Shown here: positions 4,850 to 63,260 of the stretch, piece by piece
How the letters are laid out: each line of letters starts with the position of its first letter
How positions within the stretch are numbered: the first letter of the stretch is position 1
From: a virus
Taxonomy: Duplodnaviria > Caudoviricetes
IMG/VR virus record: IMGVR_UViG_2907202186_000003
Span: 1 to 64,000 of that record
Length of the DNA: 64,000 bases
Reading direction: 5' to 3' (one strand)
Notes under the pieces: model-generated
The model's input: the letters and a program-made list of their open reading frames with translations, nothing else
The model's database searches: none
What the model was told of the DNA's origin: nothing
Program-made: the position numbers and the translations under genes

Positions 4850-4890
4850 TTCTTAATGCCCTCTCCCTTCTTGATAAAATATAGATATTA

Positions 4891-5064
4891 TCAAAAAATC
4901 CTCCAATATTTCTTACCTAAATGTAGGTACATGAAATGATATCCGCAATCAGTGAACCACCTAAATTTATATGGTTTTGTTCTTATTACAATCAGATTCC
5001 ATCCTTGAAACTCATTGCTTCCTCCGCAACCAACATAGTATTTAGTGAACATTTTTAAACTCAA
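4891..5064 (-). CDS. small hypothetical protein (57 aa; below ORF-track cutoff)
   Basis: AAGGAGGTG RBS, TTG start, MSLKMFTKYYVGCGG...YWRIF; stop abuts the palindrome at 4874. Confidence 0.6.
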   Translation of the reverse strand: MSLKMFTKYYVGCGGSNEFQGWNLIVIRTKPYKFRWFTDCGYHFMYLHLGKKYWRIF

Positions 5065-5114
5065 TCAATCACCTCCTTAAATTAGTCAAACCATATGTAT
5101 AAGTAGGCAAATGC

Positions 5115-5396
5115 CTACTCTAAAATGAACTCATCCAATTTTGCCTCTAGGTCCTCATCGGTTATCTCGACTTCTTCTAATTTAACTAATTCTTCCTCTC
5201 CTATATCTTCAGCACATTTCATGATTTCACTTCCAAGTAATTGAGGCTTCCTTCCCAGATGACCAAATAAAAATTGTCTAAGTGCCTCTCTCATAATGTC
5301 GCTCTGATCATAATAGATAGGTATTTTACTCATTGCTTCTTGCAAATCTTTATCCTTATGTTTTCTTAATCGAGTTCGTATGATCTTTACTTCCAT
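5115..5396 (-). CDS. ParR-like ribbon-helix-helix adaptor
   Basis: Overlaps the end of the actin gene; beta-strand then SDIMREALRQF helix; acidic C-terminal tail. Confidence 0.6.
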   Translation of the reverse strand: MEVKIIRTRLRKHKDKDLQEAMSKIPIYYDQSDIMREALRQFLFGHLGRKPQLLGSEIMKCAEDIGEEELVKLEEVEITDEDLEAKLDEFILE

Positions 5397-6334
5397 AATC
5401 GAACACCCACATTCTCATAACCTCTTATCTGTGATAACTGATCAAAGAGAATTTTGTTTGGTAAATTAATTTGTTCAAATACATTATGGGCAGCACCTCC
5501 ACCAATTAGATGATAATCAAAGTTAATGTTCAGGCTTTCAACTTCATTCTGAATTTGTATCGACAAAGGTCTAAAGGCTTTTTGTATTAACAGTCTAATA
5601 TCACGACCTTCATATCTTCCTTCAATAACACACGTATCCATTTCATAAATGGCAGGTGATTTTCCTACAGCTTTTTGAAGATATGTTTGAAGCAGTTTAT
5701 AAGCTTTTTCTACACCTAGTATGATGCTGGTTGACTCCTTCATAATTTCCATTTTGTCTAATCCAAGGAGGTTCAAAGTATAGAAGCCTAAGTCAATAAC
5801 AAGTATCTTTTTCTTGGCTATACCACTATTGCTAATCTTTCCTTCGGGTGTGAGTAGGAAATCCATTGCTATTCCATAGCCCTGTGGAACTATTTTGTAT
5901 TTATCTATATTTATTTTAATATTGTTTGTTTTATTTTTCCCTTTTTTGATCTTATATGAGTCTGCCTCATTAAGTCCTTCAATCAGTGACATCATGTGTT
6001 CTCTCTGAGTGAAATAGAATTTAACAGGTAACCCTGTGACAAGATTAAAAGGATTGCTGCTATTTAGGTATCCTAATCCAGTCTTCATTAGAACATTCGA
6101 AGTCATCGCTTCAGTTTTATTATCATTTAAAGAGAAGTATTTGATATCACTATGTCTTAAAGCTAATTTGCCAACGAATAAATCATCATTAAAAACAAAG
6201 TCATCTTGCTTTATGTTTTCTTCAAACACTGGCTTCGCCTCTCCATAGATGGATGGCTGAACATAGATCTTATTCTTCTTCTTCCCTTTTGACCAACTAA
6301 ACCCAAGATCAAATACGCATAATTCTGAACTCAT
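5387..6334 (-). CDS. parM: ParM/StbA-family actin-like ATPase
   Basis: Actin motifs DLGFSWSK, TGLP, PQG, IDLGFYT, IGGGA. Confidence 0.88.
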   Translation of the reverse strand: MSSELCVFDLGFSWSKGKKKNKIYVQPSIYGEAKPVFEENIKQDDFVFNDDLFVGKLALRHSDIKYFSLNDNKTEAMTSNVLMKTGLGYLNSSNPFNLVTGLPVKFYFTQREHMMSLIEGLNEADSYKIKKGKNKTNNIKINIDKYKIVPQGYGIAMDFLLTPEGKISNSGIAKKKILVIDLGFYTLNLLGLDKMEIMKESTSIILGVEKAYKLLQTYLQKAVGKSPAIYEMDTCVIEGRYEGRDIRLLIQKAFRPLSIQIQNEVESLNINFDYHLIGGGAAHNVFEQINLPNKILFDQLSQIRGYENVGVRLWK

Positions 6335-6442
6335 GACTAACCTCCCAAATTAAAAGGGTCTACAACATGGCGTTTTATTCCCTTTTGTGCTACAACTTAT
6401 AGTGAGATTATATCATTATTTTTATATACTGTATATATATTT

Positions 6443-12862: not shown

Positions 12863-12943
12863 CAGTCATTCTTCTCCTATCTCTCTTATTCTCTATTTTA
12901 CTCTCGTTTTCTAATCCTGTTTTTTGATGAAAGACGGCTTTCA

Positions 12944-13333
12944 TCAACTTGTTAAACCAACGATTCCTTCGATGCTAATATTCCAGCCACAGCGATATAA
13001 TTGATTACTATCTTCTGATTTTTTCGTATTTTCCATAGTTTTATGTATTTGTCCTTCAACTTTATTAACATCGAACGTTCTCAATAGATGGGTCAATGAA
13101 GCATACTCGTGTTTAACAACTCTTCTTTCTCTTAGCGCTTTTTGTAATTCTTTATATTTCTTAAATCCATTAGCAGCATTAAGATTATTGATTTCAATGT
13201 CATGATAAATCTGATTCACCTTAATATCACATTCAGACACCAATTTTTTTAGTTTTTCATGATCCTTTTTTATCTTGTTGATTGTCTCAGATAGAGCTGT
13301 TCCATACTCGATAGCAAGACACATCGTTATCAC
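12944..13333 (-). CDS. hypothetical coiled-coil protein
   Basis: IYHDIE...LQKALRERRVVK; RBS present. Confidence 0.7.
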   Translation of the reverse strand: MITMCLAIEYGTALSETINKIKKDHEKLKKLVSECDIKVNQIYHDIEINNLNAANGFKKYKELQKALRERRVVKHEYASLTHLLRTFDVNKVEGQIHKTMENTKKSEDSNQLYRCGWNISIEGIVGLTS

Positions 13334-14058: not shown

Positions 14059-14565
14059 TCATCCCTTCACAGATTGAGTTAAAATTATGAAATAATTGAA
14101 TAGAAAATGGCTTAATATCGGAACAAATATACTGTTTGATTTCTTGTAGTAATAGCCCCAAACGATTCCCAAGAACACATATCCAAGAAAGCCAGTAAGG
14201 TCAAAATGCAATACTGAGAAAACTAAAGCGCTTATCGTTATTGATATATTATTATTCGTATGTTTATTTAATTGATTTAGTATTAGCTTCCTACATATCA
14301 ACTCCTCAAATATTGGACTAAACAATACAGCGTAAACTATCATGATTGGTGTTTGTGTTTTATGTACTGATGGTGGATCAAGAAAGTGAGAAGAAATACT
14401 CATTAATACGCTATAGCCCATAAATGAAATACAAAACGAGTAAAATATCATTTCCCATGTAACACGCTGTTTAAGTGCTTTCCACTCATCATTAAATAGT
14501 TTATGCCGAAACTTGATAATAAACATTAAAATCAATGTTGGTACAATGCTAAGGAACATATACAC
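14059..14565 (-). CDS. CPBP (CAAX/Abi) family intramembrane metalloprotease
   Basis: EELICR, FSVLH, SHFLFN motifs; multiple TM helices. Confidence 0.85.
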   Translation of the reverse strand: MYMFLSIVPTLILMFIIKFRHKLFNDEWKALKQRVTWEMIFYSFCISFMGYSVLMSISSHFLDPPSVHKTQTPIMIVYAVLFSPIFEELICRKLILNQLNKHTNNNISITISALVFSVLHFDLTGFLGYVFLGIVWGYYYKKSNSIFVPILSHFLFNYFIILTQSVKG

Positions 14566-15439: not shown

Positions 15440-16177
15440 CTATGCTTTACCAGTGCTTCCGATTCCGCCTCTACTTACTGCATCAAGATTTTCAACCGTT
15501 ACAATCTCAACTTCTGGCATAACTTCTTGAATGCGAAATTGACAGATTCGGTCATTCTTTTTGATAACAGTATCTCTCATTGCAAGGGCGGGGAAATGCC
15601 ATTGGTCTTCGTTACCAGAGTATGAGTTATCAATCACTCCAAAGTGATTTGTCTGAATGATACCGAAGTTTTTATATGTGCTGCTTCTTGGAACTGGATT
15701 TGCTTCATAGCCTTCCGGTAACTTCATACCGACTCCCAGAGGAATTAGTGCATACTCTCCCTGCTTTAATTCAATATCTGTAGCTGAGCGAAGGTCAATC
15801 CAGTCACCTTTACTGATTTTTTGAATTGGCTCGATGTCAGCAAAGTATTTCACTTTGATTTGAAGTGGATTCGGTTTTGTATCAACTTGGCTAAAATACG
15901 TACCTAATCTATATCCCGACTCAGAAGTTGTTTCAATGGCTTCATGTAGCTTAGACAGCATTTCATTGAGACTAAGCTTTAAGCCCAAATGTTTCTTTGG
16001 TTGCTTATACTCTTCAAGTTGCGAATTGTCAAACCAGACAGTAATGCGTTGATCATTCTCTCTGCTGAAATATGTAACCTTGGTCTTATTAATACCAATC
16101 TCTTTCACAATGCCCTTCTTGTTAATACCTTTGACAAAGACGGGCTTATTAATTTCTGCATAAAATGGTTGTTTCAT
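15440..16177 (-). CDS. dut: trimeric dUTPase with ~100-aa N-terminal extension
   Basis: [30 protein letters not shown]. Confidence 0.92.
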
Positions 16178-16198: not shown

Positions 16199-16606
16199 TT
16201 AATCTAGTTTTAACATCTCATAGAACTTATTTTTCACTTTATCTGTCGGGTATCCCTCGAATTTATACTTAAAAATGATCTCGTTATTTTGCTTCAGTAA
16301 TTCCTCAAGTGTGTCTATCGCACCACAAAAGTCTTCTCCATAAATAGTATTTCCGCTGCCAAAGAGACCAATCTTTCTTCCGGTGAGACTCCTGAGTTCA
16401 TTAATTATTTGCTTGAAATACATCGGTGGAACTCCTCTACCATAAGTAGGAGAACCAATGACAATAACTTCTTCGTTCCCAAATTCAAATTGCTTAGGAT
16501 CTTTATTATTTAGTCTAATGACCGGGAAATCTTGTTGATTTATGTCTTCTACCAATGCTGCCGTCTTTCCGGTCAACGAAAAATAGTATATAGCTTTAGT
16601 AATCAT
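16199..16606 (-). CDS. nrdI: NrdI-like flavodoxin
   Basis: YFSLTGKT, SPTYGRG, GSGNTIYG..FCGA; follows the RNR beta gene; ATG at 16606 has an RBS. Confidence 0.8.
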   Translation of the reverse strand: MITKAIYYFSLTGKTAALVEDINQQDFPVIRLNNKDPKQFEFGNEEVIVIGSPTYGRGVPPMYFKQIINELRSLTGRKIGLFGSGNTIYGEDFCGAIDTLEELLKQNNEIIFKYKFEGYPTDKVKNKFYEMLKLD

Positions 16607-17693
16607 AATCCTCACCAGATGAGTGCTCATAATTGATTGCATCTGTTTGAAGGAAATCTGTTCTTGTTACGATTTGTTTGCTGTCGTTTTTGTCACGTTT
16701 TTTGCTGCCATAAGTAACAATCCATCTCGATTTAATTTCTTGGTTCTCTGGATATGGTTCCTGAATACCTGCATTACGAGCAATCAAATTAGCTAAATAT
16801 TCAATGTAATTCATGTATTCTTTCATACTTAGTGTTTCGATGTCTTTGAAAATGTACTTAGCCCAAGCCTTTTCTTTTTCCACGCAATCCTTAATAAAGT
16901 AAACAGCATATTGTTGGTTTTCAGTTGTGTTTAGTTGAGGATTTTCACCCATAATTGAACGAATGAGAGTGCCGTAGAACTCTGAGTGTTGTACTTCATC
17001 AGTTTTAATCATACAAATGAGGTTATTGGAGCCCATCATTTTTTGATCTCTTGCGAGAGAGTGAAAATAAACAAATCCACCAGTAAAGAAGAGACCTTCA
17101 AGATTCTGATAAGCAAGGAGCCCCTCAAAAGACGCTTGCAGGAAGTTATTATCAATCTGCTTTTTGTTTACTACATAATCAACCACAGTATCGAGGAAGG
17201 TTTGAATTTTATCCAGAACTAGTTTATTGCGTTCCAGTAAGACCGGGATTCGTTTTACTTCTTCGAATGCCTCCCTCTTTTGTTGATCATTAAGCATAGT
17301 AGACGTCAGATACTGATATGAGCGATTATGAAGATTTTCAAAATAATTAATTAGTGCGATATTAGAGCGAATGCTTGGATCAGTAACCATATAAGACAAA
17401 AACATATTAAAATCGGTAGCATGTGAATCAAGTTGATTCAACATTCCCGTGATTGTATTAAATACATATTTCTCAGCTTCAGTTAGCTTAGAATTGTACT
17501 GTTCAATATCTTTACCAAGTTTAACTTCATCTTCATTCCAGAACTCTGCTGACAAATTTTTATTAATGTCCAACATTGTTGGATACTTAAGGTTATCCCA
17601 GTCTCTAATCCCACTTGATCCCCCACCAAAAATGCTAGTGGGGAGATTGCTATTTTCTGCCTCAAAAATCTTAAATGGTAGTATGGTATTCAT
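16596..17693 (-). CDS. nrdF: Ribonucleotide reductase beta subunit
   Basis: Metal ligands LDS, ENLHNRSY (radical Tyr), LEG..F..GF, DEVQH. Confidence 0.92.
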   Translation of the reverse strand: MNTILPFKIFEAENSNLPTSIFGGGSSGIRDWDNLKYPTMLDINKNLSAEFWNEDEVKLGKDIEQYNSKLTEAEKYVFNTITGMLNQLDSHATDFNMFLSYMVTDPSIRSNIALINYFENLHNRSYQYLTSTMLNDQQKREAFEEVKRIPVLLERNKLVLDKIQTFLDTVVDYVVNKKQIDNNFLQASFEGLLAYQNLEGLFFTGGFVYFHSLARDQKMMGSNNLICMIKTDEVQHSEFYGTLIRSIMGENPQLNTTENQQYAVYFIKDCVEKEKAWAKYIFKDIETLSMKEYMNYIEYLANLIARNAGIQEPYPENQEIKSRWIVTYGSKKRDKNDSKQIVTRTDFLQTDAINYEHSSGEDYDY

Positions 17694-17715
17694 TTATTCT
17701 TTCCTCTCTCTTTTT

Positions 17716-20031
17716 CTAGGCTTCGCACATTGTGCAGTTGTCTGTTCGTTCATATTCTTCGGTATATGTATAATAAATTGTCTTCAATCCCTTATTCCAA
17801 GCGCCCAAATCAAGTCTCACCGTCTCTGACCCATTGATCGATTTAAGTACGTGCATGTTGTGCGACACTGCTTGGTCAATGTGCTTCATCGCTGCAGCCA
17901 CAACATTGATCGACCACATTTCATCCATCTCAAAACCTGATTTGTAATATTCCTTCGTTTTATCGTTGTAGTTTGATGGCGTAATAATCATGTTTAGTCC
18001 AGATTTAACTTCACGATAAATTACCTCATACAATGGATCTGTACTCGGAGAACCGTTCATAATGATACTATTACTTGATGTAGGAGCAATAGCCATCAGA
18101 TAACCGTTTCTCATTGCTTTCTTAGACATTTCCTTAATCTCTAGCCATTCATCTGAATTATAGTTCCGTTTTTCAAAGTACTCTCCTGTGCTCCATTCAG
18201 AGCCTTCGAATACTTTGTATGAACCCTTTTCAAGACCAAGTTTATGGGACGCAATAATTGTTGCTTTAGCGATTTGTTCAAATAGTTTATCTACATAACC
18301 ATAAGCTTGAAAAGAATCCCATTTAACTTGTTTTTCGGCAAGCAGTGTTGCAAGCCCAAGAGATCCTAGGCCAATGGCACGATACTTATGATTTGTAAAT
18401 GTGGCTTGTGGTACTACTGTACGATTCAGACTGATTACGTTATCCAGTAGGCGCACTTGAATATCAATTACTCGTTGTAGCTCGACATCTTGAGTGAATA
18501 CATTATGCAGCACCAAAGAAGACAAATTGCATGTTACCAGATCTCCACTTTTGATTCTTGTGGTAATAAGCCCTGTTTCGTGGTCAATTTCCTCAGTGAT
18601 TAACTCATCATAAGATTGGTTCATGATAATTTCAGAACATAAATTTGATCCAAGTGGCATTCCAATATGACTATTTGGATTCATCCGAGCTGCTGTATCA
18701 CTAAAATACATGTACGGAGTGCCGCCTGTTTTGCGAGACATGAACATTGCTTTGTGAATTTCAGAAGCATTAACAGTTCGTTTCAGTTCAAGATCTGCTT
18801 TCTCGATAATTCGGTAGTAATAAGTAAAAGCATGATCGTCTTCATTTGGCTCTTCATTTTCTTGAAGTTTCCTTCTGTCATAAAGTCTATTTATATCAAT
18901 ACCGAGTTTCTTTTTGACTTCATATGGATCTACAATGGTCCAGGTTTGTTTGTTTTGAAGCCGTCTCATAAACTCATCTGGTAGGCAAACTGCTGTCTTA
19001 ATTGAATGTGCACGTTTTTCTTGTGAGCCTGTCTTGAGACGTAATTCTAGGAAGTCAAAGATGTCTAGATGATACACAGGCAAGTAAATAGCAATACCAG
19101 CAACCCTCGTACCTAATTGATTCACGTACTCAGCAAGTACACTCATTGAACGTGAAGGGTGAGTGATGCCTGTTGCTCGATTTTTAATGCCTCTAATCCA
19201 ACTTCCTCGCGCTCTAAGGTAATGAGCTGCAATCCCAATCCCGGCTCCATTCTGACTAAAACGTGCGGTTTGTTGTTGTACGTCATAAATATTATATAAA
19301 TCATCATTCCAGGTAATCTCGTGACAAGATGAAAGGGAACCATGCGGCAACCCTGATGATTTGAGTGTTGGAGTTGCAAGCCCGATATAATGATTGCTTA
19401 CTGCCCAATACGCTTCTTTAATCAGCCCCATACGATGTGATTTTTTCTCGTCTTTCAAGAGATAAATAACCGCTGTAAGGAAACGTTCTTGTGGAAGTTC
19501 TAGCACTTCGCCATCATAACCTTTAACAAGGTAGATACTATTTAACAGAAAGAGTCCCGCATAACTAAAAAGCTTATCTTTGTTAACATCAATCATTTTG
19601 CCGATTTGCTGCAATTCATTCTCACTGTACTGTTCAATAAGGTCGGTAGAATATAGCCCTTTCTCGACCATCATTCTGACAAAGGTTGGATAGTCACCAT
19701 AACCTGATTTGTAATTAAATCCACGCTCTTTTGAAGCTTGCTTATAAAGCTTTCTCCGTAATGTCGATGCTGATAAATATGTATATTGTGGTGAATCTGC
19801 ACTAATCAATTCGTTTGCTTCACGAATAATTAGATCAAATAATCTGTCTGCATAAATCTCATCCCGACATGTAGCTTCATCAACTACTTTGACTTTAATT
19901 GTTTTTAGTTCATCCGCTGGATACTTTTTCCCACTATCTTGAACAATCTCATTAAAGAAACGATCAAATCTTTCCAAGTTAAATTCAGTCTTCTGAATGT
20001 ATGACTTTCTGTCTTTTAGTACAAGTGTCAA
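17716..20031 (-). CDS. nrdE: Ribonucleotide reductase alpha subunit
   Basis: ATPTL, LSSC, SNLCSEI, TCNLSS, AIAPTSS, KTIYY, C-terminal CTMC; uninterrupted. Confidence 0.93.
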   Translation of the reverse strand: MTLVLKDRKSYIQKTEFNLERFDRFFNEIVQDSGKKYPADELKTIKVKVVDEATCRDEIYADRLFDLIIREANELISADSPQYTYLSASTLRRKLYKQASKERGFNYKSGYGDYPTFVRMMVEKGLYSTDLIEQYSENELQQIGKMIDVNKDKLFSYAGLFLLNSIYLVKGYDGEVLELPQERFLTAVIYLLKDEKKSHRMGLIKEAYWAVSNHYIGLATPTLKSSGLPHGSLSSCHEITWNDDLYNIYDVQQQTARFSQNGAGIGIAAHYLRARGSWIRGIKNRATGITHPSRSMSVLAEYVNQLGTRVAGIAIYLPVYHLDIFDFLELRLKTGSQEKRAHSIKTAVCLPDEFMRRLQNKQTWTIVDPYEVKKKLGIDINRLYDRRKLQENEEPNEDDHAFTYYYRIIEKADLELKRTVNASEIHKAMFMSRKTGGTPYMYFSDTAARMNPNSHIGMPLGSNLCSEIIMNQSYDELITEEIDHETGLITTRIKSGDLVTCNLSSLVLHNVFTQDVELQRVIDIQVRLLDNVISLNRTVVPQATFTNHKYRAIGLGSLGLATLLAEKQVKWDSFQAYGYVDKLFEQIAKATIIASHKLGLEKGSYKVFEGSEWSTGEYFEKRNYNSDEWLEIKEMSKKAMRNGYLMAIAPTSSNSIIMNGSPSTDPLYEVIYREVKSGLNMIITPSNYNDKTKEYYKSGFEMDEMWSINVVAAAMKHIDQAVSHNMHVLKSINGSETVRLDLGAWNKGLKTIYYTYTEEYERTDNCTMCEA

Positions 20032-20056: not shown

Positions 20057-23000
20057 TTATGTATTCTGTTTCTTCCATATCTTCAACCCAAAATCCATCC
20101 AAGCTTCTCTCCATACCTCTTCACTCAAGGTATCGTATTCTTTGAATACCTTTGTTCCAAGGTGCTTTTTTAATTTACTTGTAACGAACTTGTCGTCATG
20201 CAGCATCTCTTCCAATTCAGTTCCAACATCTCTTTCAAAACATTCGGTCAACACATCAGTCAACTCGTAGACAGTTCTGATATTCATCACCTTCCATTCA
20301 ACCGAATTTTTTATTATATTTACTTTATAACGATAAGCCAACAACTATTGGGATGATGAAAGGTACATTTCATTGAATCTCAATGAAGTGCTTACCATAA
20401 AAGATATCAAGCCTATCAGAATCAATTTCTTTAATGATATGTCTATCGCCTTGATTACTCTTAGCGCGAATCACTCTCTTGAATGTGTACATATCACGCA
20501 AACTTGTTTTGTAGCCTCTATATTCTTTGCCTTCACTAAATGCCAATGTTCCATCATTTAAAACGACATTGTGAATACACAACAGTTTAATATTGTTTCC
20601 CATCAGTAAACGTCAACCTCATATTCATAATTGGGATCAACATTATACAACTCTTTTAATTTTCCCTCAATCTTATTTTGCGTTTTTTCATACTTGCTTT
20701 GCTTTTCATGATATTTATTTCTATAATAAAGTGCCTCTTCATACTCTACGTAATAAGTATCTTGCAACCGATCAAGTTCACTAACCAATTCTTTAACTTT
20801 ACTCTCCATTATCTTTCTTCCTCCTTAATACCTCTTAAAATGTGCATTTCATGTTCATTAGTTACGAGCAATACCTGCATTTGCCCAGAACACAACTTGT
20901 TCGAGGTTTGTCAATGCCAGGGACTTTTCTCGGCTCTTTGGTACTTGATCTTCTAGGAGGTAAGCAAGTTCTTTAGCTTTCATTCTAATCAATTCATACT
21001 TCTCCGGTTGTCCTTCTTTTGGAGGATGATAAGAAAAGTTGTTTTCAATTGTATAGTCGTATTGGTTTTTAACAAAGAAGGCAACATTGTTAACTACATA
21101 CTTTAAACTATAGACGTAATCGTTGTGTACAATGTCGTATTCATTTTCGATTGCCTGAGCGACCCAATCCTCTACTTCCCCAATTTGGTTCCCCGAGTAA
21201 TAATCAATGCATTTCAACATTTAATTTATTTCTCCAATCTTCATAAAATTTGACTTTCATCAACCATTACCATTTACCAGTTTCATGATATTCCTTGATA
21301 CACAATTGGCAGAAAACCAAATCTTCATCTTCAGAAGTATATGGCGCTTTTAAATCAATGTCTCTTTCTTTTAAACATTGATCACAAACAAACATTTTCT
21401 TCTTTTTAATATACTCTTTTTTATTTTCTTCTATGTATTGCATTGTGTCCTTAAGACCCATTGTGACACTCCTCTCCACATAAAATGCGGCTTTTATATT
21501 AATCTTCTTTTCTATGGCAATAATCGCAAACCATATTGTCTTCTACAATCGAATGCATTTCTTCTCCTGGAAGACTGTCTCCGCACTCTTTACAGTCATA
21601 CCTAAGGTAATGAAGTGGGTTATATCCAGACCACGTTGACCCTAAATGCTTCGCCACCTCTTCAACTGCTACTGGATCAATATCTACCTTTGCAATATCT
21701 CCTTCCTCGATGTCCCCATAAACCTCACTATGCTTGCCTAAAATCTCACCGAAATATGCTTTTCTACCAATTGCATACTCCACTTCTTTTTCTGTAGCAA
21801 CAAACAATCCTTCAACATCACCTTGGCGACCACAGTCCCAACCGAACTTAAATAGATACTTATTCCCCACTCAAAGGCCTCCTACTTCTGAAATTATAAT
21901 TCCATTACTCTTCATAGTATCAACTGCTTCTGGTAAGATATCTTCTTTTACTTTCTGCCATCCATACAGTGTCAAACCATAGTACAGATCATTTAACTCC
22001 TTATCCTCATCGAACATCTCACCATGTAATCGAATCATTCTTTCCTTAAAAGATTCAGTTCCAATGACATTATAATCAGCATCATATATCTCAAAAGTTT
22101 CATCATCTTCTTCGCTATACTTATATGAGTTGTAGATAACAGAGCCATCAGAAAGCCTTGGTTCGTTTTTTAACCACTCATATACTTCCTCATCTGACCT
22201 TGCGACAAGATGAGTAATTGTGCCAACTTTACTATCTTTTTGTGAATAATGCTCAAACATGATTTTGTATAGATTCATTTCACTACTCCTTTCTTGATCA
22301 AATACGCCTTTCATTTGAAGTTGTAATACCTAACTTGCATAACATTGACCTTCCCATTCATGCTTTCATTTTGAAAATACACATACCTATGTTCATTTCC
22401 CCAAGGCATTTTTGAAAATTGACTTCTTGCCTCATCTTCGTTATCTATGTATTTCATTTCAATTCGATTTTCCTCTACAACTTCTTTGAAAATTGAGCAA
22501 TCACACAATATACTCCCATTTTTAAGTTCAATATCTACATTGAACATGACATAGCTCCTTTCTTAATAAAATCTCACTTTTATGAATTCTCTTTAATTCC
22601 CGCATATTTCTTCAGTTCATCAATCGCAAACTTAATCCCATCTGCATACCAATTGTCAAAAGTTGAATCGCTGTCCTTGTGAAGTTCATAATCTGGCACG
22701 ATACTTTCGATGAAATCATTTACATAATCAAGAAACCTTTCTTCGACTCGTTCTTCATATTTATCAATAACACTTCTCGCAAAATAATGCGTCTTACTTA
22801 ACCCTGCTACCTCTTCATATACCTTTGGAACTTGGCTTAACAAAAACGAATAGTCTGCTAACTCACGTTGGATTTGGTCAAGATTTAATGCCCCCCCTTC
22901 AGTTACACAATGTTTCCAATCCTCTTCCCAAACTAGTTGATACGGTCTTTGTGCCATAGACTATCCTTCTTTTCTCTTTAAAATATATCTTTCATAAAGT

Positions 23001-23830: not shown

Positions 23831-23869
23831 AAAAATCTCCTCATTTCTTGATGAAACAGTTCTTTCATT

Positions 23870-31395: not shown

Positions 31396-31438
31396 TAGAT
31401 TGTTTCTATTAATTTCATGTTCTGATAAAAACTAGAAT

Positions 31439-37979: not shown

Positions 37980-38018
37980 AGCTTATAAAATATTTGTTTC
38001 ATCATGTATCAATTATAT

Positions 38019-42365: not shown

Positions 42366-42738
42366 TATTTATCCCTTTCTTATAAAAGTATTATTTCATC
42401 AGATTTACTTATCCTCTAAATGGTTTCCTTAGTGTATTTCTGTTCAAAAAATCAATCACTTCTCTTTTCTTCATGATAAAAACCTTATTATAATTTACTA
42501 AGCAACTTGAACAATAGGGCTGATTATTTGAATTGAAGAGAGGTTTTGCATTTTGATTTGAACAGTTAGGACATTCATAAATAACCCCTAAAACTGTACG
42601 CTTATTCTTATCCCAGTCTTTTGGAGTGCGATATTTTGTCATCTCTTCCCCACCTCATATGATTTCATTTAACAGCGACTCATCTGTTATTATTCGACAT
42701 TAATTATGTATTCACCTTCCGGATAATCCCTTGAATCA

Positions 42739-50665: not shown

Positions 50666-50772
50666 CGAATTAATAAGAGACCTCATAAATATGTGGTCTC
50701 TTATTTGGTTTCTTATGAAAGATTCCTTTTATCTATTCTCACATATCATTTTTTTAAGGAGTTAATTAGTCA

Positions 50773-51456
50773 ATGTTAATGATACGAATAATCCATTCTA
50801 ATTCTGTTGTTCAGTTCGAAATGTTAAACGATTATGCAGAGGAAATGGAAGAATTAATCAAGTCCAAATCCACGAAATATCTGGAACGTTTAAAAGAACT
50901 ATCTAATAAATACAGTGAAGATGAACAAGATGATTTCTGGTATTATAACAGAGAACGCCTAACTCAATTTCACGTTGATTATCCTAACTTACTACGTTCT
51001 TCTATATTAATATCTGCAATTTCTGAATTAGAAAACGTACTTAAAAAAATCAAACAAGAACTAATAAATTATTCGATCTTAGATCCTGAAGACTTTACCA
51101 AAAAGAACAAGGAAGAAAAGGGAAGTTCTATCGAAAAAACACTAAAAATATTCTGCGATAAACTTTCTATTGGGCTAATTTCTGAATTAGATTCATGGAA
51201 CGAAGTAAGATTTTTAATTGATATCAGAAATAGAGTGACACATAGTGTCGGGCAAGTTCATCCTATTGAACAAGAGAGACTTTATAATCTTCTGAGTTTA
51301 ATGGAGGAGTCTGATGATAGAACGATAAGACTCAGTCCCTATCATGAATTAATATTTTTAGAAAATTCATCAACCTTTATTATCAATTCTTGTTTGAAAC
51401 TTTTAAAGAGTATTACAGAGAGCGTATTAACAACCGTTGCTGTATCTAAAAATTAA
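50773..51456 (+). CDS. HEPN-like protein (putative RNase)
   Basis: All-helical, S.LE helix and RNRVTH (RxxxxH) motif; own terminator at ~51461-51490. Confidence 0.65.
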   Translation: MLMIRIIHSNSVVQFEMLNDYAEEMEELIKSKSTKYLERLKELSNKYSEDEQDDFWYYNRERLTQFHVDYPNLLRSSILISAISELENVLKKIKQELINYSILDPEDFTKKNKEEKGSSIEKTLKIFCDKLSIGLISELDSWNEVRFLIDIRNRVTHSVGQVHPIEQERLYNLLSLMEESDDRTIRLSPYHELIFLENSSTFIINSCLKLLKSITESVLTTVAVSKN

Positions 51457-51764
51457 CTACAAGGCTACAGTAATTGTAGCCTTTTTTTTATTCAGAAAAT
51501 CAAATATGTATTTCATACTAATTCAGTACCATAGTAAACGTATGTATTGTCATCATTTTTCTTAAATTTAGTAATTGCAGAATAATCAGAATATCCTCTC
51601 TTAGCCAAATCGATACCAACATGATAAAAATAATCTTCATCATCAATCTGGAGCAGAATTTTCTGTAATGAATCATTTTCATTAATATCTTTTGTATCTC
51701 CATCGTAAACTAATTTCTCGATCACGGTTAAACACTCTCCCTTTTTCATCAAACACGCATTTCA

Positions 51765-52253
51765 TCACAATTTATAAAGTGTTACCCTATAATCACAGAA
51801 AGTCTCTTCTATGATCCCTTTCACTACATCCCAATCCCCATTTGCTAAACCGCAGCCGATATTAAATGGTAATGCAACACTCAGACCACGCTTTTGAGCT
51901 TCATTTTTCAGTGTAGTTAGAGATTCCTTAAGTGCCTCATAATCTGTATATCTAAGCTTCCGTCTCCCATAGTTCAACTGACCAAATAAGTTGGAAATAT
52001 ATTTATCTCCAGTTTTAACAATGTGACACTTACCTAATAAATCGTGTGGATCGTAGTTATTGCAAAACTGCTTATAGGATGGATATAGATTTGAATATTT
52101 GTCTCTTAGTAATTTGGCTACACCAGATCCCATAACACCTTGGCAATTTACTTGATGTCCTATGATATCTTCAGATGCATCAAGTAAATTACCTTTAATT
52201 ATCTTAATCATTTTTTCATCTCCTCTATAGTAATCTCGACCAATAAACAGCAT
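51765..52253 (-). CDS. Macrodomain protein (DarG/TARG1-like)
   Basis: GNLL, HQVNCQGVMGSGVA, NLFGQ, PFNIGCGLANGDW. Confidence 0.88.
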   Translation of the reverse strand: MLFIGRDYYRGDEKMIKIIKGNLLDASEDIIGHQVNCQGVMGSGVAKLLRDKYSNLYPSYKQFCNNYDPHDLLGKCHIVKTGDKYISNLFGQLNYGRRKLRYTDYEALKESLTTLKNEAQKRGLSVALPFNIGCGLANGDWDVVKGIIEETFCDYRVTLYKL

Positions 52254-52929
52254 CCATATGAAGGGAATCTATCGTGGGTGTCTCTGCGTATGTATCATTT
52301 TCATCACCAAGTTGATGTTCAGCATTATCGAAACGGTAAAATTCCATTTGATCAAGAGTTGAATTACTCAGCAAAATTGGAGACGAAGCATTTCTACATA
52401 GATCATAGTCACTACGCTCTTCATTGATTATTCTATTCACTTCTTTTTGAGCGTCCTCGATGTGATCTCGAAGAAATAGAAACGCTCCTTGAGCAGTCGG
52501 CTCTCCACTATACTTAATGCCTAGCGCCACTTCGACACCTTCAATTGCCTTTCTTTGCTTTTCTGACATTGGTTTTATCATAATCCACCCTTTCTATTTC
52601 TTTATGAAACGTGCCTTTTACTGAATCAAGATTTTTAATTTTTCAAGATGTTTATTATACTCTTCTTGTCTATCCTCTGATATATATACAACATCCTCCG
52701 ACCATTCTTTTAGTAAATCTGGGAGTTTTGCAGTATAAAGTGAATTACAATAGATATGCTCACCTTTTATAACGTAAGTAGTTTGTTTATTTCCCCCATA
52801 AAAATAATTCAAGGTGTCCTTTAGCTCTTCAGTATAAAAATTCGATTCAATTACATCAAAAGAGTCTAATTCCCGTATTACAATATAGAACATCATCGTC
52901 ACCTCTCTAGTTTCAATAAAATAGACCTT

Positions 52930-53607
52930 TCATCCCAACACTCCAAACAATACATCTAATTCATAATCGTACTGTGGTTTCAACGTATACAGTCTCTTAC
53001 CTGACTGTCTTGCATAACGAACACAATTACCCGTGCCACCCTTCGTTCCATCCCACGCAGCAACAATTGTCAGACTTTGATCGACCATATATTCATTGCG
53101 CTTCTGCATCTTAGCTACATGGTATTCACCTACAATAACACCATCCACTTTATAATCTGCTAACTCGTCCACATATACAACTTCATCAGCCATATCGAGC
53201 ATCTTCTTGTACCATATCTGAGTTTCACGATCATTCCATTTAGAAGCCTGATTCTTGAACGGTACGGCAACGATATTTTTAATGTTTGGGTAATATGTCT
53301 TTTTAAGTCTTCGCACAGTCCAGAATGCTATTTGATCAAAACCAATAGCGCCACCTGAAATGAATCGCTCAATTCCTTCATCTTCAATCAAGTCAATCAA
53401 TACAGGCTCAAGTTTGCTATGTATGTATTTAGACTGAACATCTGATAGACTGTAGCAATTGCCGAGTTTATTGGGTCGATGACCCGTGAAGCAAACCGTC
53501 TTACGTTCAAGCTTTTCTTTTAGTTGTTCTTGTTTGTGCCGTTCTTCTATTCTTCGCTTTAAATCTTCTCTTCCTTCTGGCGTATTGAGTTTGGCGAAGT
53601 CCACCAT
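52930..53607 (-). CDS. YspA/DUF1273 SLOG-family protein
   Basis: CFTGHRP, SGGAIGFDQ, RNEYMVD, WDG.KGGT. Confidence 0.88.
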   Translation of the reverse strand: MVDFAKLNTPEGREDLKRRIEERHKQEQLKEKLERKTVCFTGHRPNKLGNCYSLSDVQSKYIHSKLEPVLIDLIEDEGIERFISGGAIGFDQIAFWTVRRLKKTYYPNIKNIVAVPFKNQASKWNDRETQIWYKKMLDMADEVVYVDELADYKVDGVIVGEYHVAKMQKRNEYMVDQSLTIVAAWDGTKGGTGNCVRYARQSGKRLYTLKPQYDYELDVLFGVLG

Positions 53608-54147: not shown

Positions 54148-54816
54148 CTACTCATTTAGTTTCCAATCGTATTTTTCACCACGCTCTGTTAATTGAATGA
54201 ATTCGATTGGTGCACCAGCGTCATCTACATAAATAAGCTTACCATTGGCTTCTGTCGTTCTAAGTAAATCTTTATACTCAGACCACTTAACTTCCTCTGT
54301 CGTTTTAATACAATCTGGATTGTTTTCTTTAACATATTGGACAAATAATTCATCGTCTTTGGCCTTTGCCGGTTCTTTGCCATTGATCAAAATTACTGGG
54401 GATTGCACTTTACTGGTCAAGTTTCTATACGGTAATTTAATTGTCTTGCTTAATTTCTTTTCTTTCTTATTTTTTGCCTTCAGCTCTTCGTTCTCTGACT
54501 TCTCTTGTTCAAGTGTTTTCTTGTGCCATAAGTGCAAATGTTCTTTGAAGAATGTAATATCATCTTTATCTTTTTTAGTTGCTTCCTGCTTCCATTGTTC
54601 CAACTTCTCAATCTTAGCCTTTAATACCTCAATGTTACTATTCGCTACTTTCTCAACCTCTGCAGCTTTAACTTCTTTTTCGTGGATCTTCTCATCTGCC
54701 CAGACAGCCAACTCAAGAGTGGTAATTTTCCAGGTTGGATCTTGATGTAACTGATATGTATCGTCTTGCTCATCAATAATGTTCTCAATTTCATTTTGAA
54801 AATTATAAGCGTTCAT
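54148..54816 (-). CDS. Gam-like host-nuclease inhibitor
   Basis: WKIT..E.A.WA, long coiled coil, KTIKLPY, EVKW. Confidence 0.7.
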   Translation of the reverse strand: MNAYNFQNEIENIIDEQDDTYQLHQDPTWKITTLELAVWADEKIHEKEVKAAEVEKVANSNIEVLKAKIEKLEQWKQEATKKDKDDITFFKEHLHLWHKKTLEQEKSENEELKAKNKKEKKLSKTIKLPYRNLTSKVQSPVILINGKEPAKAKDDELFVQYVKENNPDCIKTTEEVKWSEYKDLLRTTEANGKLIYVDDAGAPIEFIQLTERGEKYDWKLNE

Positions 54817-54852
54817 TTATTCAATCTCCTCTAATATGTATTTGGATAAAAG

Positions 54853-55470
54853 TTATGTTTCACTAAGATTACTTTGGAACCCACTTTTCAGTACGACTTC
54901 ATCAAAATTATTAATGATTTGATAGCGAGATACTTGGAACCTTTCTGCCCACTGTTGTATTGTTTGTGTTTTATCGTTAAGTGTGATATATGTACATGTA
55001 GTTCTGTTGTTGCCTTGTGTTTTCATATCGACCCATCTGCAATTGCTAGGCTTATAGTCACCATTAACATCAATTCTATCAATAGTGAGACCATCACTAT
55101 AGCCATTTTCAGTTGCCCAATTATAAAAAATCATAAAATCCTCAAGCCAGGTTGAGCATATCTTAACTCCTTTCCCGCCGTAATATTTATAATTTTTATT
55201 TTTACTATTAAGACACTTTGACTTTATATCACACCATACGCTATAAAGCTTATTATCAGATAATCCATGTGTAATATTCACAATTTTTTTATAGCATCCA
55301 CACGATACGGTGTTCTCTTTTAACAATGCATTCGATGAGACAAGTTTTTCGTTCCCGCAATCACATTTACATAACCACATTATATTTCTGGAACTATCTC
55401 TTTCTTCAGTTGGTCGAATTGCAACCAACTTATAGAATCTTATATTTGCTAAATCTTTTTTGGAACCCAT
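54853..55470 (-). CDS. HNH-type (homing-like) endonuclease
   Basis: WLCKCDCG, SCGC, YGGKG, TIDRIDVNGDY.PSNCRW. Confidence 0.85.
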   Translation of the reverse strand: MGSKKDLANIRFYKLVAIRPTEERDSSRNIMWLCKCDCGNEKLVSSNALLKENTVSCGCYKKIVNITHGLSDNKLYSVWCDIKSKCLNSKNKNYKYYGGKGVKICSTWLEDFMIFYNWATENGYSDGLTIDRIDVNGDYKPSNCRWVDMKTQGNNRTTCTYITLNDKTQTIQQWAERFQVSRYQIINNFDEVVLKSGFQSNLSET

Positions 55471-55701
55471 TTTTTCACCACTACATCCTTTAACTCAACC
55501 TCTACACAGTCAACTTCGGTTTGCCCATCCCATGGTGATTCATCTTGCATTTCAGTAGCTCCTTCAGAATAATGTGTTTGATAGAATTTACCTTCATGCT
55601 CAAATACAATCTTATGATGAATGCTCCATCTTGAAGTATCTGTAATTTCATCGACCATAGCACTGTACGGCAAATCCAATTCATTTTTCAAATAACTCTT
55701 T

Positions 55702-56604
55702 TTAAACTTCATCTAAAATCACTCCATATCCTTTACAGTGTTCGCATTCAACTAATGGTTTATTGATTACAATCATTAATTCATCCAAGAATTTTTGGAT
55801 AATATCTTTTAAATCATCTTCATTCTTTCCTTCAAATGGCTCAATTACCGGATATGTCTGGTATGATTTGGGGGCAGTTTCATAAACCTTAACAGTTCGA
55901 GAACGGCTATATCTTGTTTCGTATTTCGGTTTTCGCTTTCCAACGTCTACTCGATATGATTCTGGAGCATGTTCAATCTTCTTAGAAACAGAAAGACAAA
56001 AATCATAATCACTTGTAACAGATGCATACTTACTATCTATATTAGCTTTTATATATTTTCTTACGATATTAAAGCTCTCTTGTCGGGATAATTTGCAAGG
56101 TTTTGTTGAGAGAAGAATAGGATGAGTTGTAATATGATCTAGGATTGAGTGCTGCAACTGAAAGTCGCTTCTTACGATTTCAAAATCTTCTAACTCAGCA
56201 ATTACATTTAGTTCAAATTCAACATTTTCCAATCCTGGTTCAGTCAAATCGAATTTCCGTTCATATAACCCATATACAGACTCATATTGACCAGTATCCT
56301 CATCAAAATCAGAATACTGTAGTACCTTTGGCAAACCCGTATTGTAGTGTACTTCCTTAAGTTCGTACCGTACATTGATTTGTTCTGCTGGAAGACTTCT
56401 TTGAATCGTTGTTGGCACACAAGGAACCTCAAACCAGTCACTCTTATATGTATTTTCAGGTTTTGATCCATCAAAAATTAGATCTTTAATTCTAGAATAA
56501 AAATATGAATCATTATTGATATTATCAGAAACATAGACTTTAGATTTAGTTTTTATGGCAATCAATTTTAGACTTTCGCTTGCCGGTGCTTTTCCTCTAT
56601 TCAA
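55702..56604 (-). CDS. hypothetical protein with C-terminal CxxCxG
   Basis: 300-aa ORF; TSDYDFC, CEHCKGYG. Confidence 0.7.
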   Translation of the reverse strand: MNRGKAPASESLKLIAIKTKSKVYVSDNINNDSYFYSRIKDLIFDGSKPENTYKSDWFEVPCVPTTIQRSLPAEQINVRYELKEVHYNTGLPKVLQYSDFDEDTGQYESVYGLYERKFDLTEPGLENVEFELNVIAELEDFEIVRSDFQLQHSILDHITTHPILLSTKPCKLSRQESFNIVRKYIKANIDSKYASVTSDYDFCLSVSKKIEHAPESYRVDVGKRKPKYETRYSRSRTVKVYETAPKSYQTYPVIEPFEGKNEDDLKDIIQKFLDELMIVINKPLVECEHCKGYGVILDEV

Positions 56605-56648
56605 ATTAACATCTCTCTTTCTTAATAAAATTTACATCTCATGCAGAT

Positions 56649-60167: not shown

Positions 60168-60701
60168 TCATTCTCCTTTCATCAAGTCAAAATCAAACTG
60201 ACTCAATATATTTAACAATCGTTCAACTTTTGGTGCTCTCCAGGCCGTCATTGCATATGTATGTGCCTTACTTGTATAGTGATAGTGATTAAATCTTAAG
60301 TGTGTTTTTGCTTCTTCTTTTGTTAGAAACATAGTGTTAGGGACAATAAATTCTTCTTCTTTAACAAAGACTGAACCAAAGTATCCATTATCGTTCATGT
60401 TGTCTATGATGTATTGCCAAAGGAAATCAAAGTCGTCTTCACTCAAATACCATCTTACTTCATCATCAATTTCTTCTTCGTAATATTCTTCAATAAACTC
60501 TTTCAGATCATTAAAACTCTTAAATACCACATGATCTCCATCGTTATGGAAATATTCATACTCTCCACAATCGTAATCTTCGTGTCCAGGGATTTTTCTA
60601 TAATCCATAATCACCCAGAAGCGCGGTGCAGCCTGAAAATCATGTTCTTGGGTGTTTAGTTCCTGCTGCAGTTCCTTCAAAAATTGAATATCTTCGTTCA
60701 T
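60168..60701 (-). CDS. hypothetical phage protein
   Basis: 177 aa; QA.PRFW, MFLTK.EA..H, YAMTAWR; AAGGAG RBS. Confidence 0.7.
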   Translation of the reverse strand: MNEDIQFLKELQQELNTQEHDFQAAPRFWVIMDYRKIPGHEDYDCGEYEYFHNDGDHVVFKSFNDLKEFIEEYYEEEIDDEVRWYLSEDDFDFLWQYIIDNMNDNGYFGSVFVKEEEFIVPNTMFLTKEEAKTHLRFNHYHYTSKAHTYAMTAWRAPKVERLLNILSQFDFDLMKGE

Positions 60702-62105
60702 TTACACGCTCCTTTTCTTAATGAAGTATCAATTTTAATCACTATTTCAGTCAAAAGTTTCGATTACGGATTCTTCTAACTTTATTTCTCTTATGAATTT
60801 CAATAATTCTTCCTTTTTCATCTGGGAGCATACGAGCTTCGACCTTCATAATATAATCAGTTGTGATTGATCTTGGAATGTGATGGTTGCGATAAGAGCA
60901 ATCTGATTTTTTATCTATCTCTATCGGAAAATCTTTTAACCTCTTGATTCTTATATCAAAAGTGCCCTCTGTATTTGTATCTTTATAGCCTCTCATTATT
61001 AAAGCGTATGTATCATCTTTATTTTTCTTAATTGTTATTTCATCGAACAAAACTTTTATCCTCCCACGGAGCAAAGTTGTCCTCTGATGTATCTTCTTTT
61101 ACATAGCCGCCCAATTCTTTATATCTCTTTTCCAATTTATTCATTAGCTCTGATTCTTCATCAGATAGTCCAAATGATACCTGTTCTCTATCCAGTAAAA
61201 GAAGAATAAGCTTCAACTCATTTACATCTAAATCCAAAATAACATCTCCTCTTAAAATCCTAGTTTCATCAAAACTTAACCTGTAGCCTATCCTGAACAG
61301 ACAAGTCTAAATATTCATATTTCAACATCTTTCTTCCGATTAATTCAAACACCATAGCTTTATATGTAGGAGCATTGTTCAAAAAATTTTCTCCCTTGTG
61401 CCCCTCTCTTCTTTCACACAAGTGAATACAGTTTAAAAGATGCAAATCACGCATATCGGAAATGACAAGCCTTTTCCCTTCAGCAGTTACCCATACCAAT
61501 TCATTGACCTTGGACTTGTTATAGCGAAAATCCATTCGTTCTAATTCTTTATTTAAATAATACTCAGCCATTTCAGCCAAAACTTATCTATAACTCCTTT
61601 CTCGATGAAATACAGGTTTTACTTAGTTTTTATTTTACTCTGATATAGTTCCACAAGTTCTACATCACTTAGCAACCTCAAATCGTTCAAGCGAAGTTTG
61701 TGATTAATTACTAGTTTGCTTATTATCAAGTGCCTATCTGTGTTATTAAGAAATAACAATTCTGGAAACATAAATATCAACTTCCCGCTAATTTGTCTAT
61801 AAACTCCTGAACCTTTAAACCAAATTCCTTCCTTGCCTCTAGTGCTGCCTGTATCACATGGTTCACGTCTCGATTATTCTCCAATACATCACTAACTAAG
61901 TCTTCAATGGATGTCTCGGATATGTATTTGATGGTTTTCAAACGCTTCATTAAAATTTCTCCATCTCATTTTCAACGACTTCTTTGATATCCTCTAACTT
62001 ATCCCTCAGTTCCTGCAACTCACTATAGCTGCAGTCTCCATCTTCAAGGTATCTGAACAACTCAGCGAACCGCTCAAAGTTTACTGACATCAATTTACTC
62101 ACTCC

Positions 62106-62630
62106 TTAATTGGAATTTTCAACTTTCATAATGTACTCGATAATGTTTACTGCTTTATCGAACTCATAGTTAATGACTTGGTAATCAAATCTCTTCTTCC
62201 GGAATTTAAGGCCATCTCCATTAATCCGCGAAAGCATCTGATCGACATCATCTCCACGTACGAACATTCTCTTCATTCGGGCTTTCTTATCTACCTTGAG
62301 ATAAATAGTTACGAACTCAATATCTTTAACATTTTCCTTGAGATATGTAATTCCGTCAGGATCAATTACATATATATCTGTCTCATTTAACTGCTTCTTC
62401 GTACTAAAATAATGATTTCCATCAAAATATGTATAAGCTGCTATATCATCATTCTCTTTAAATTTCTCGTACTCTTCATAACTGCAAAAAGTGTGACCCC
62501 ATTCATTTTCACTTCGAGGACTTCTTGTTGTATAGGATTGCAGCACATTGTATCCTTTTTGCTCAAGTGCTTTGGCTACCTCTGTCTTACCGGCTCCAGA
62601 GTAAGCCATTAAACAATAGACTTTCTTCAT
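62106..62630 (-). CDS. gmk: guanylate kinase-like protein
   Basis: YSGAGKT, SYTTRSPR, VIDPDG, RGD. Confidence 0.85.
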   Translation of the reverse strand: MKKVYCLMAYSGAGKTEVAKALEQKGYNVLQSYTTRSPRSENEWGHTFCSYEEYEKFKENDDIAAYTYFDGNHYFSTKKQLNETDIYVIDPDGITYLKENVKDIEFVTIYLKVDKKARMKRMFVRGDDVDQMLSRINGDGLKFRKKRFDYQVINYEFDKAVNIIEYIMKVENSN

Positions 62631-63160
62631 TTCTTCACACCCATTTTAATTATTTTAACTTTCAATTTTTGTTTTCCAAATTGAATTGCCCTTTTATGAC
62701 TATCGAAATACAAATCAAGCCGCGCGCCCTTAATTGCTCCCCCAGTATCAGTAACTACACGCTCTCCAACATTCTCTATGTAAATAACCGTTCCCAACGG
62801 TAAAACTCTCGGATCGGCGCTTACTGTGCGTCCTTCAATGGTCTTTTCTCCGCTTTTGGTAATGCCGTAATCCTTATCACCTGGACGTTTTTGCGTGGAC
62901 TTGTATCCGTTATCATAAGCGGTAACAATGTAAGTTTTCCATTCCGTTTCAGATTTGCTGGAATTATTTACGTTCTTCTGTACCTCTTCTTCCTTCTGTT
63001 CTTGCTTAACCACTATTTCTGACTTCTCCAACGTCTCAACTTGAACACTTTGCTTATGTATAGTGTTTGCTGCCTCCTGTGCCTTCATAACACTCTCTAA
63101 TTCAGTCTTATTTGCTGATAGTGTTAGTAGCAAGAAGAGAATAAAACTTCCCATAATCAC
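62627..63160 (-). CDS. 3D-domain cell-wall protein
   Basis: Signal/TM segment; VTAY, SADP, DTGGAIKG.RLDLY. Confidence 0.88.
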   Translation of the reverse strand: MIMGSFILFLLLTLSANKTELESVMKAQEAANTIHKQSVQVETLEKSEIVVKQEQKEEEVQKNVNNSSKSETEWKTYIVTAYDNGYKSTQKRPGDKDYGITKSGEKTIEGRTVSADPRVLPLGTVIYIENVGERVVTDTGGAIKGARLDLYFDSHKRAIQFGKQKLKVKIIKMGVKK

Positions 63161-63260
63161 GCTCCTGGTTGATTAGATAATTAAATTTAAGCCCCACTCT
63201 TACAAGTGAGGCTATTTACTATACTTCTTGATAAACTCTGTCTTTCATTAAAACTATGTA

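Follow-up and report, generated by a model that had tools for sequence, protein, structure and literature searches.

Why should a phage carry dozens of copies of one short palindrome at the junctions between its accessory genes, and why should the center of each copy differ? These questions are raised by a 64,000-nucleotide stretch of DNA from a virus of the Caudoviricetes (IMG/VR record IMGVR_UViG_2907202186_000003, positions 1 to 64,000; hereafter the window), in which an 18-bp dyad, made up of two 6-bp arms around a 6-bp spacer, recurs between successive genes. Comparison with related phages reveals unique spacers, the same order of sites in relatives, unrelated genes between matched pairs of sites, arms inherited with their own flanks, and homology breakpoints inside the site. 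The sites probably serve as fixed crossover points, addressed by their spacers, where gene slots are swapped between phages by a Xer-like tyrosine recombinase.

The window corresponds to positions 164723-228722 of contig C11 in a 6.6-Mb genome of about 48% GC. The dyad is nearly confined to a 35%-GC stretch of this contig, from ~164 to 303 kb, with 48 copies of its strict form on C11 and ~11 in the rest of the genome. This stretch is a ~138-kb SPbeta-like prophage of a Paenibacillus-type host, and its closest relatives are Paenibacillus prophages. The prophage carries MrpR, a YopQ-like gene, a YonO-type polymerase and an HU-like protein, as well as a RecD2-like helicase and an AAA-domain protein, and the sites are nearly missing from its structural region. 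Neither the host dif site nor the prophage att repeats were located by simple pattern searches, and a viral scan with a DUF4046 gene as query gave no match. A host palindrome containing the 11-mer of the Bacillus subtilis XerD arm recurs on contig C1 (408919, 428054, 556007, 395846 and 996041) and looks like a regulator box rather than dif.

Structure and Placement of the Sites

The strict pattern ATVAAA-N6-TTTBAT occurs in 35 exact copies in the window, compared with a mean of 0.39 and a maximum of 2 in shuffled sequences, while spacer lengths of 2-11 other than 6 give 0-3 copies each. A preliminary description of this DNA had counted 29 exact copies by eye and estimated that fewer than one would arise by chance; the motif is thus real and the count somewhat low. 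With the looser core RTVAAA-N6-TTTBAY and at most one mismatch over the 18 bp, 58 copies are found at gene junctions in the window, and all 58 spacers differ from one another, as had also been noted. Interiors of coding sequences (CDS) make up 69% of the window, yet 33 of the 35 exact copies lie outside them, in agreement with the intergenic placement described earlier. The upstream stop codon falls within the 18-mer at 24 of the 58 sites (in 14 of these, arm bases 2-4 are the stop), and the 11 open reading frame (ORF) ends previously cited as touching the motif all agree with the ORF list. Furthermore, 37 of the 58 sites end 15-32 nt ahead of the next start codon. Promoter- and terminator-like matches between 49000 and 63500 are not above the level of shuffled sequences.

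Beyond the strong inner 6 bp, both arms continue as a weak, symmetric extension to 11 bp, so that the full site is 11-6-11. A TCT extension occurs in register on the left of 16 and the right of 31 of the 96 sites of the prophage, compared with 0-6 in shifted registers, and the profiles of the two arms mirror each other, with AAA/TTT innermost. The extended arms reported at 12924-12947 are present. The statement that the dyad is absent from the nrdE-F-I-dut-thyX group and the tubulin island does not strictly hold, as exact copies are found at 16160 (between nrdI and dut) and at 46391 (in the tubulin island). The latter is a probable chance match and was left out of the spacer comparison as intragenic; a further exact copy lies at 117, inside ORF 1-552.

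Spacers as Positional Addresses

The spacers were compared among six related prophages (G151, G152, G153, G154, G155 and G172), which share 67-75% DNA identity with the prophage in aligned parts. All 96 spacers of the prophage are unique. Five relatives hold 32, 42, 39, 27 and 11 of these spacers, where shuffles predict 1-3, and 32/32, 42/42, 38/39, 17/27 and 11/11 of them, respectively, are colinear, where shuffled order gives 5-10; G154 is at chance level, with 8 spacers shared and 3 colinear. In the window, 43 of the 58 sites have a colinear match. These matches are not carried by the surrounding genes: 131 of 143 matched sites have no homologous neighbor gene on either side (flank identity ~0.3), and the DNA between successive matched sites is unrelated, with no blastn or tblastx similarity, in 40 of 51 intervals in the window and 76 of 95 overall. 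The degenerate arm positions 3 and 16 agree between matched sites at rates of 0.51 and 0.44, which is close to random draws. Colinear matches are exact in 293 cases and differ by one base in 35.

Whether spacers travel with genes was examined by pairing sites through an adjacent homologous gene while ignoring the spacer. The 81 pairs are bimodal, with 20 identical spacers, 6 that are one base off and the rest random, indicating that a relocated gene brings no spacer along and that spacers stay with their position. No spacer is duplicated in the prophage in either direct or inverted orientation, although ~2.5 of each are expected; the other genomes are alike in this, but the genomes are not independent.

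Individual slots illustrate the pattern. The slot between sites 36231 and 35913 has four unrelated contents across five phages: both spacers are adjacent in four relatives, where they enclose unrelated DNA of 323, 404 and 1257 bp in three and a homologue in one. The Gad1 gene lies directly behind site 56625, and in the closest relative, G172, the pair of spacers around the Gad1 slot encloses 941 bp of unrelated DNA; likewise, G155 has an unrelated 90-aa ORF between the spacers that flank the Acb2/Tad1-type gene. Both spacers around a 227-aa ORF that runs against the array recur in relatives, indicating that slot use is independent of gene direction. This ORF (50773-51456) matches nothing in Pfam or PHROGs and lacks a homologue in the six relatives, and a HEPN reading of it was not confirmed by profile search.

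Larger units may behave in the same way. The helicase and primase (32522-34021 and 31439-32506, minus strand) share 30-39% identity with those of G172, but 83-88% and about 70% with those of G151, G152 and G155. Since G172 is otherwise the closest relative, the replication module between sites 35913 and 31425 has been exchanged as a block. The nrdE and nrdF genes (16596-20031, minus strand), flanked by sites 20356 and 16160, share 23-41% identity with the ribonucleotide reductases of relatives, which suggests that this module has also been replaced.

Sites in B. subtilis Phages and Laboratory Recombinants

The dyad is also enriched in SPbeta, Tsamsa, a Staphylococcus SPbeta-like phage and KKP_3916, with no enrichment in Lactococcus phage 949 or Sundance. 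SPbeta holds about 41 dyads, at gene junctions, and no ordered addresses are common to the Paenibacillus and B. subtilis phages. In comparisons of SPR, SPbeta and phi3T, the switch between homologous and unrelated DNA is often located precisely at a shared site, inside the 16-bp core; 27 sites have homology on one side and unrelated DNA on the other, and the outer arm base goes with the flank next to it. The sites also lie next to known anti-defense genes (loci from bioRxiv 10.1101/2023.05.01.538930 and PMC11984713). Gad2 of SPbetaL7 is exactly bounded by two sites, gad1 of phi3T has the same upstream address as gad2 with a decayed arm, and Nip lies between two sites that are also found in SPbeta.

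Recombinants of SPbeta and phi3Ts obtained in the laboratory (bioRxiv 10.1101/2020.05.06.055103, Supplementary Table 1) have junctions that, with two exceptions, span at least 400 bp of homology. The two exceptions both map to sites. Junction 7 ('30 bp') maps onto a matched-spacer site with 21 identical bp, and the start of junction N1 ('non-homologous') coincides with the first base of a matched site in which 18 bp are identical. At most 12 of the 108 short identity islands between SPbeta and phi3Ts contain a site, so that two of two short junctions on sites is roughly a 1% event. Other 16-23 bp repeats common to the two phages are far more numerous, yet are not the short junctions. In four deposited SPbeta x phi3T hybrid genomes, k-mer mapping places the switches in long homology or in stretches of point variants, which is uninformative for the sites. 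The ends of the 's' replacement that distinguishes phi3T from phi3Ts are not at sites, and the site inside it differs in spacer. An A-rich repeat of 16-22 bp, possibly a phage promoter element, is found in many copies in the SPbeta-like phages of B. subtilis, where it precedes genes and often adjoins a site (for example, phi3Ts 107374-107393); a similar AT-rich repeat is found in the window at 14650, 31362 and 54123.

Candidate Recombinases

Four genes with a tyrosine-recombinase fold are found in the prophage, all outside the window (Table 1). If the crossover model holds, the best candidate for the enzyme is the YopP-like protein, for which the estimate falls a little short of an even chance. 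This protein keeps the residues R-K-H-R-H-Y, has no arm-binding domain and is XerD-like, matching XerD (E 7e-6) better than IntI4 (E 7e-4), and a homologue is present in every site-bearing phage checked for one. No function is assigned to YopP in the literature examined. Within the same model, the YomM-like protein and the host XerC/XerD are each doubtful but credible candidates, and another protein is an alternative to all of these. XerC/XerD is retained because the dyad stays the same even though the phage enzymes have diverged to 25-30% identity. As sole enzyme, the YomM-like protein was set aside, as it was not found in the site-bearing G172 or KKP_3916 and has HxxK. In G153, G154 and G172, its gene is absent or a distant relative takes its place, and in the distant protein of G154 a Trp replaces the second catalytic His, as in Flp/Cre-type enzymes. 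MrpR, a known repressor without an HxxR motif, and the 367-aa integrase, which is of the arm-binding type and was not found in the compared slices of relatives, were also rejected.

Evidence Against Address-Matched Crossover and Alternative Explanations

Several results weigh against the reading of the sites as address-matched crossover points. Some homologous genes are found in slots that do not correspond, and G153 carries blocks of sites in an altered order, so that strict spacer matching alone is insufficient. Among distant Paenibacillus relatives, blastn alignments end at 21 of 41 site-bearing gaps compared with an intergenic base rate of 84 of 186, which is not an enrichment. The laboratory junctions of at least 400 bp are explained by ordinary recombination; junctions 7 and N1 were placed from reported coordinates after calibration rather than from reads, and the phi3Ts coordinate of N1 stops 13 nt short of the site. 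In three SPR hybrids, three sites close to the right end have parental flanks on both sides and thus no crossover. YopP-like genes are also present in 949 and Sundance, which both lack the dyad, and many YopP relatives, including that of SPbeta, have HxxK rather than HxxR. The YopP-like protein, a putative recombinase of the sites, thus co-occurs with the dyad imperfectly.

The sites could instead be short homology anchors for general or annealing recombination, in which the shared 18-21 bp seed crossovers and the arm-binding protein has another purpose. The predominance of long homology at laboratory junctions fits this explanation, as do the RecD2-like helicase and AAA-domain protein of the prophage and the promoter(early) stem-loop (PeSL) cassettes of T4-type phages, which shuffle genes by recombination between repeated elements (PMC2839356). 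Annealing would, however, favor a match at each of the 18 positions; instead, the central 6 bp are conserved and positions 3 and 16 show no correlation between matched sites. Duplicate spacers are also avoided, and the commoner repeats of SPbeta and phi3Ts do not serve as short junctions, making anchors unlikely. Integron- or Tn916-like cassettes, which carry their own site, excise as circles and reinsert at any site whatever its spacer, so that order is shuffled, were favored in the preliminary description. The anatomy of the units (ribosome-binding site (RBS), gene, stop codon in the site), the inverted unit at 50715-51516, the minority of genes in other slots and the reordered blocks of G153 are consistent with such cassettes, and rare mismatched events probably occur and may create slots. 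This proposal was nevertheless not supported, as order is almost perfectly kept in four relatives, spacers are tied to position rather than to genes, mismatched insertion would tend to leave the duplicate spacers that are missing, and neither an attC-type structure nor an Rfam match was found for the sites; it is considered improbable. An element acting at the RNA level, such as a hairpin or a processing or translational-coupling signal, would account for the stop codon in the arm and the fixed spacing to the next start, and two of six tested copies fold with z of about -2.3. Given that the other four fold no better than shuffles, that the sites flank an inverted gene, that Rfam is silent and, above all, that no covariation is found at the third arm base (chi-square p 0.64), as had been noted earlier, this explanation is largely refuted and retains almost no probability.

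Operators or sites for a nucleoid protein, with an expression-only or DNA-organizing role, would also have symmetric arms and lie just upstream of RBSs. SPbeta-like phages do use a recombinase-fold repressor (MrpR/SroF), and the prophage encodes one along with its HU-like protein. MrpR, however, binds ten promoter sites, the SPbeta repeated elements (SPBRE; PMC10516654), as a monomer on a longer box (bioRxiv 10.1101/2025.11.27.690993), compared with the ~41 dyads in SPbeta. A plain operator also gives no reason for unique spacers kept letter for letter amid degenerate arm bases and the turnover of flanking genes, and such a role is regarded as quite improbable. Finally, the 11-6-11 geometry and the XerD-like phage protein would suit dif-like resolution of sister-genome multimers, for which identical addresses on sister copies would be substrates, with gene swapping as a by-product. 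One site would be enough for this purpose, and ~100 addresses at accessory-gene junctions, with nearly none in the structural region, would be unneeded; multimer resolution as the selected function is therefore highly improbable. The earlier view that the dyad is a site for a dimeric, tyrosine-recombinase-type protein that marks exchangeable accessory and anti-defense units, and not an RNA hairpin, is supported by the covariation, geometry, folding, Rfam and slot data.

Comparison with Known Systems

By analogy, the sites would work most like the pdif/dif modules of plasmids and laboratory cassette exchange with heterospecific sites. In recombinase-mediated cassette exchange (RMCE) with heterospecific lox or FRT sites, spacer identity sets the pairing, which allows the segment flanked by two different sites to be exchanged in register with no deletion. 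RMCE is engineered and uses two or three sites, while the phage would be a natural version with ~100 addresses if the crossover model is true. The attC site of integrons, which often includes the stop codon of the gene, is a single-strand hairpin that moves together with the cassette, and cassette order becomes shuffled. The phage units resemble integron cassettes in having mostly one or a few promoterless genes and, often, a stop codon in the site; they differ in their fixed order, in sites that stay put, and in a dyad of 18-28 bp that folds weakly and has no attC R/L-box hairpin. Unlike in Tn916, the phage spacers are conserved and unique, and both short laboratory junctions lie between identical spacers rather than mismatched coupling sequences.

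Similar to the phage sites, the pdif sites of Acinetobacter plasmids, which are used by XerC/XerD (PMC6449649, PMC9455709), have 11-6-11 geometry, are present in many copies per replicon and bracket exchangeable accessory modules, and pdif recombination between two molecules yields cointegrates and hybrids. In contrast to pdif, which has C/D polarity and depends on host XerC/XerD, the ~100 phage sites have unique spacers in a fixed order across phages, belong to a temperate phage of Bacillota and have symmetric arms unlike those of the dif consensus (the host dif itself was not located). The difH site of the single recombinase XerH also has two arms around a 6-bp center, with the inner ~5 bp of the arms read specifically and the outer bases weakly (PMC5241119), and one Xer-sized protein could serve both arms of the phage site. 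Core dif/Xer sites differ in that dif is a single, FtsK-activated site for chromosomal dimer resolution, while the phage has many, heterologous sites placed at gene junctions. Like the PeSL of T4-type phages (PMC2839356), the sites are repeated intergenic elements in variable regions where genes are gained, lost and replaced. A PeSL, however, is a sigma70 promoter with a terminator stem-loop that recombines by similarity to give mini-circles, without unique conserved spacers or recombinase-site geometry. The SPBRE (PMC10516654) likewise recurs between genes of SPbeta-like phages and is bound by a protein with a recombinase fold; it is set apart by its description and count, being a 15-bp motif at ten promoters (ten chromatin affinity purification sequencing peaks) bound by a catalytically dead monomer. 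No published description of the motif was found in literature searches, which exclude subscription papers, including the 1999 SPbeta genome paper.

Sites, Slots and Their Cargo

The positions of sites, slots and candidate recombinase genes are collected in Table 1. Homologues of two genes from the run of slots at 29302-31442 occupy different slots in relatives. The genes of the RNA-ligase family, macrodomain, YpsA/SLOG (52930-53607) and Gam-like (54148-54816) proteins, all on the minus strand and one to a slot, are plausible counter-defense cargo. Two CAAX-protease (Rce1/Abi-like) genes are present in the array (14059-14565 and 36614-37393, minus strand). The polymerase ORF at 914-4849 (minus strand, 1311 aa) shares 21-23% identity with the polymerase of relatives and is much longer (1082 aa in G172); a polymerase of another type, or an insertion such as an intein, may be the reason.

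Table 1. Sites, slots and candidate recombinase genes. Positions are those of the window unless contig C11 is named; sites are given by their starts.
Feature	Position	Strand	Remarks
Array of 58 junction sites	4874-63248		All spacers different; genes read on minus strand
Sites with spacer recurring in at least one relative (n = 44)	7832, 8493, 9337, 12927, 16160, 20356, 20835, 21243, 22297, 22566, 22978, 23637, 23851, 29302, 29567, 30545, 30821, 30999, 31425, 35913, 36231, 37985, 39336, 39556, 39731, 40726, 41254, 42382, 50715, 51499, 51748, 52604, 52916, 54846, 56625, 57177, 57422, 57678, 57901, 58504, 59178, 61252, 61605, 63231		
Sites not shared with the six relatives	4874, 7054, 7403, 16220, 21480, 27499, 31097, 35522, 37403, 41782, 50091, 53631, 53815, 61042		Some may be chance matches
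Copy with perfect 9-bp arm extension	12924-12947		Spacer kept in three relatives
Exact copy at nrdI/dUTPase junction	16160-16177		Spacer common to G155
Exact copy inside 794-aa ATPase gene	46391-46408		Plus-strand (tubulin) island
Single-gene slot, Acb2/Tad1-hairpin protein (20858-21220)	20835-21260	-	PF24729, E 8e-22
Run of one- and two-gene slots, sites 23851, 23637, 22978, 22566, 22297	22297-23868	-	Order kept in G151, G155, G152, G172; contents mostly unrelated
Run of slots, sites 31425, 30999, 30821, 30545, 29567, 29302	29302-31442	-	Includes RNA-ligase-family ORF (29624-30511)
Model slot, sites 36231 and 35913	35913-36248	-	One 98-aa ORF (35936-36232)
Run of slots, sites 42382, 41782, 41254, 40726, 39731, 39556, 39336, 37985	37985-42399	-	Ordered addresses in G153, G151, G152; contents mostly unrelated
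Slot with 227-aa ORF against array direction	50715-51516	+	Own terminator-like hairpin, 51461-51483
Slot with macrodomain ORF (51765-52253) and 118-aa ORF	51748-52621	-	
Gad1 slot, sites 56625 and 54846	54846-56642	-	Gad1 (55702-56604; PF25705, E 6e-139) and two further ORFs
MrpR	C11, 233.8 kb		Tyrosine-recombinase fold
YopP-like protein, 346 aa	C11, 264435-265475		36 kb beyond the window
YomM-like protein, 334 aa	C11, 284055-285131		Bracketed by two sites
Arm-binding integrase, 367 aa	Prophage end		

Proposed Mechanism and Significance

Strand exchange by tyrosine recombinases crosses an overlap of 6-8 bp that must match. The spacer of the phage site is a positional address that apparently must match, so that the main event would be in-register replacement between phages. 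The ~100 non-identical sites, ordered in the early arm, would each present two symmetric protein-binding arms around a unique 6-bp overlap. In a cell that contains the genomes of two related phages, a Cre/Xer-type tyrosine recombinase would synapse the sites and complete strand exchange only where the overlaps are identical, giving a crossover in register at the same address. A further crossover, either in ordinary homology or at a different address, would then replace one to several genes. Because the upstream arm holds a stop codon and an RBS follows closely, the incoming gene could be translated within the early operon. With no address repeated per genome, the phage would be protected from self-deletion and inversion. 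A mutated address would leave the exchange network, from which the conservation of addresses would follow, and separate phage populations would drift to separate address books. Rare mismatched events are probably behind the slot-moved genes and the reordered blocks of G153. In its fullest form, the proposal is of phage-encoded, address-matched cassette exchange, in which ~100 heterospecific sites would form the common address book of a recombining population and a YopP- or YomM-type recombinase would let anti-defense and accessory genes be traded slot by slot without gene homology; this form is judged about as likely to be right as wrong.

If true, spacer-addressed crossover would provide a concrete mechanism for the long-standing puzzle of how phages replace unrelated genes at the same locus. 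The model phage SPbeta has both the sites and two orphan tyrosine recombinases, making the idea directly testable in B. subtilis, and a natural recombinase that distinguishes ~100 six-base addresses would be a useful tool for multiplex DNA exchange. Anti-defense genes occupy the slots, with Gad1 and an Acb2/Tad1-type gene in the window and Gad2 and Nip in B. subtilis phages, and the slot contents offer a focused list for finding new anti-defense proteins.

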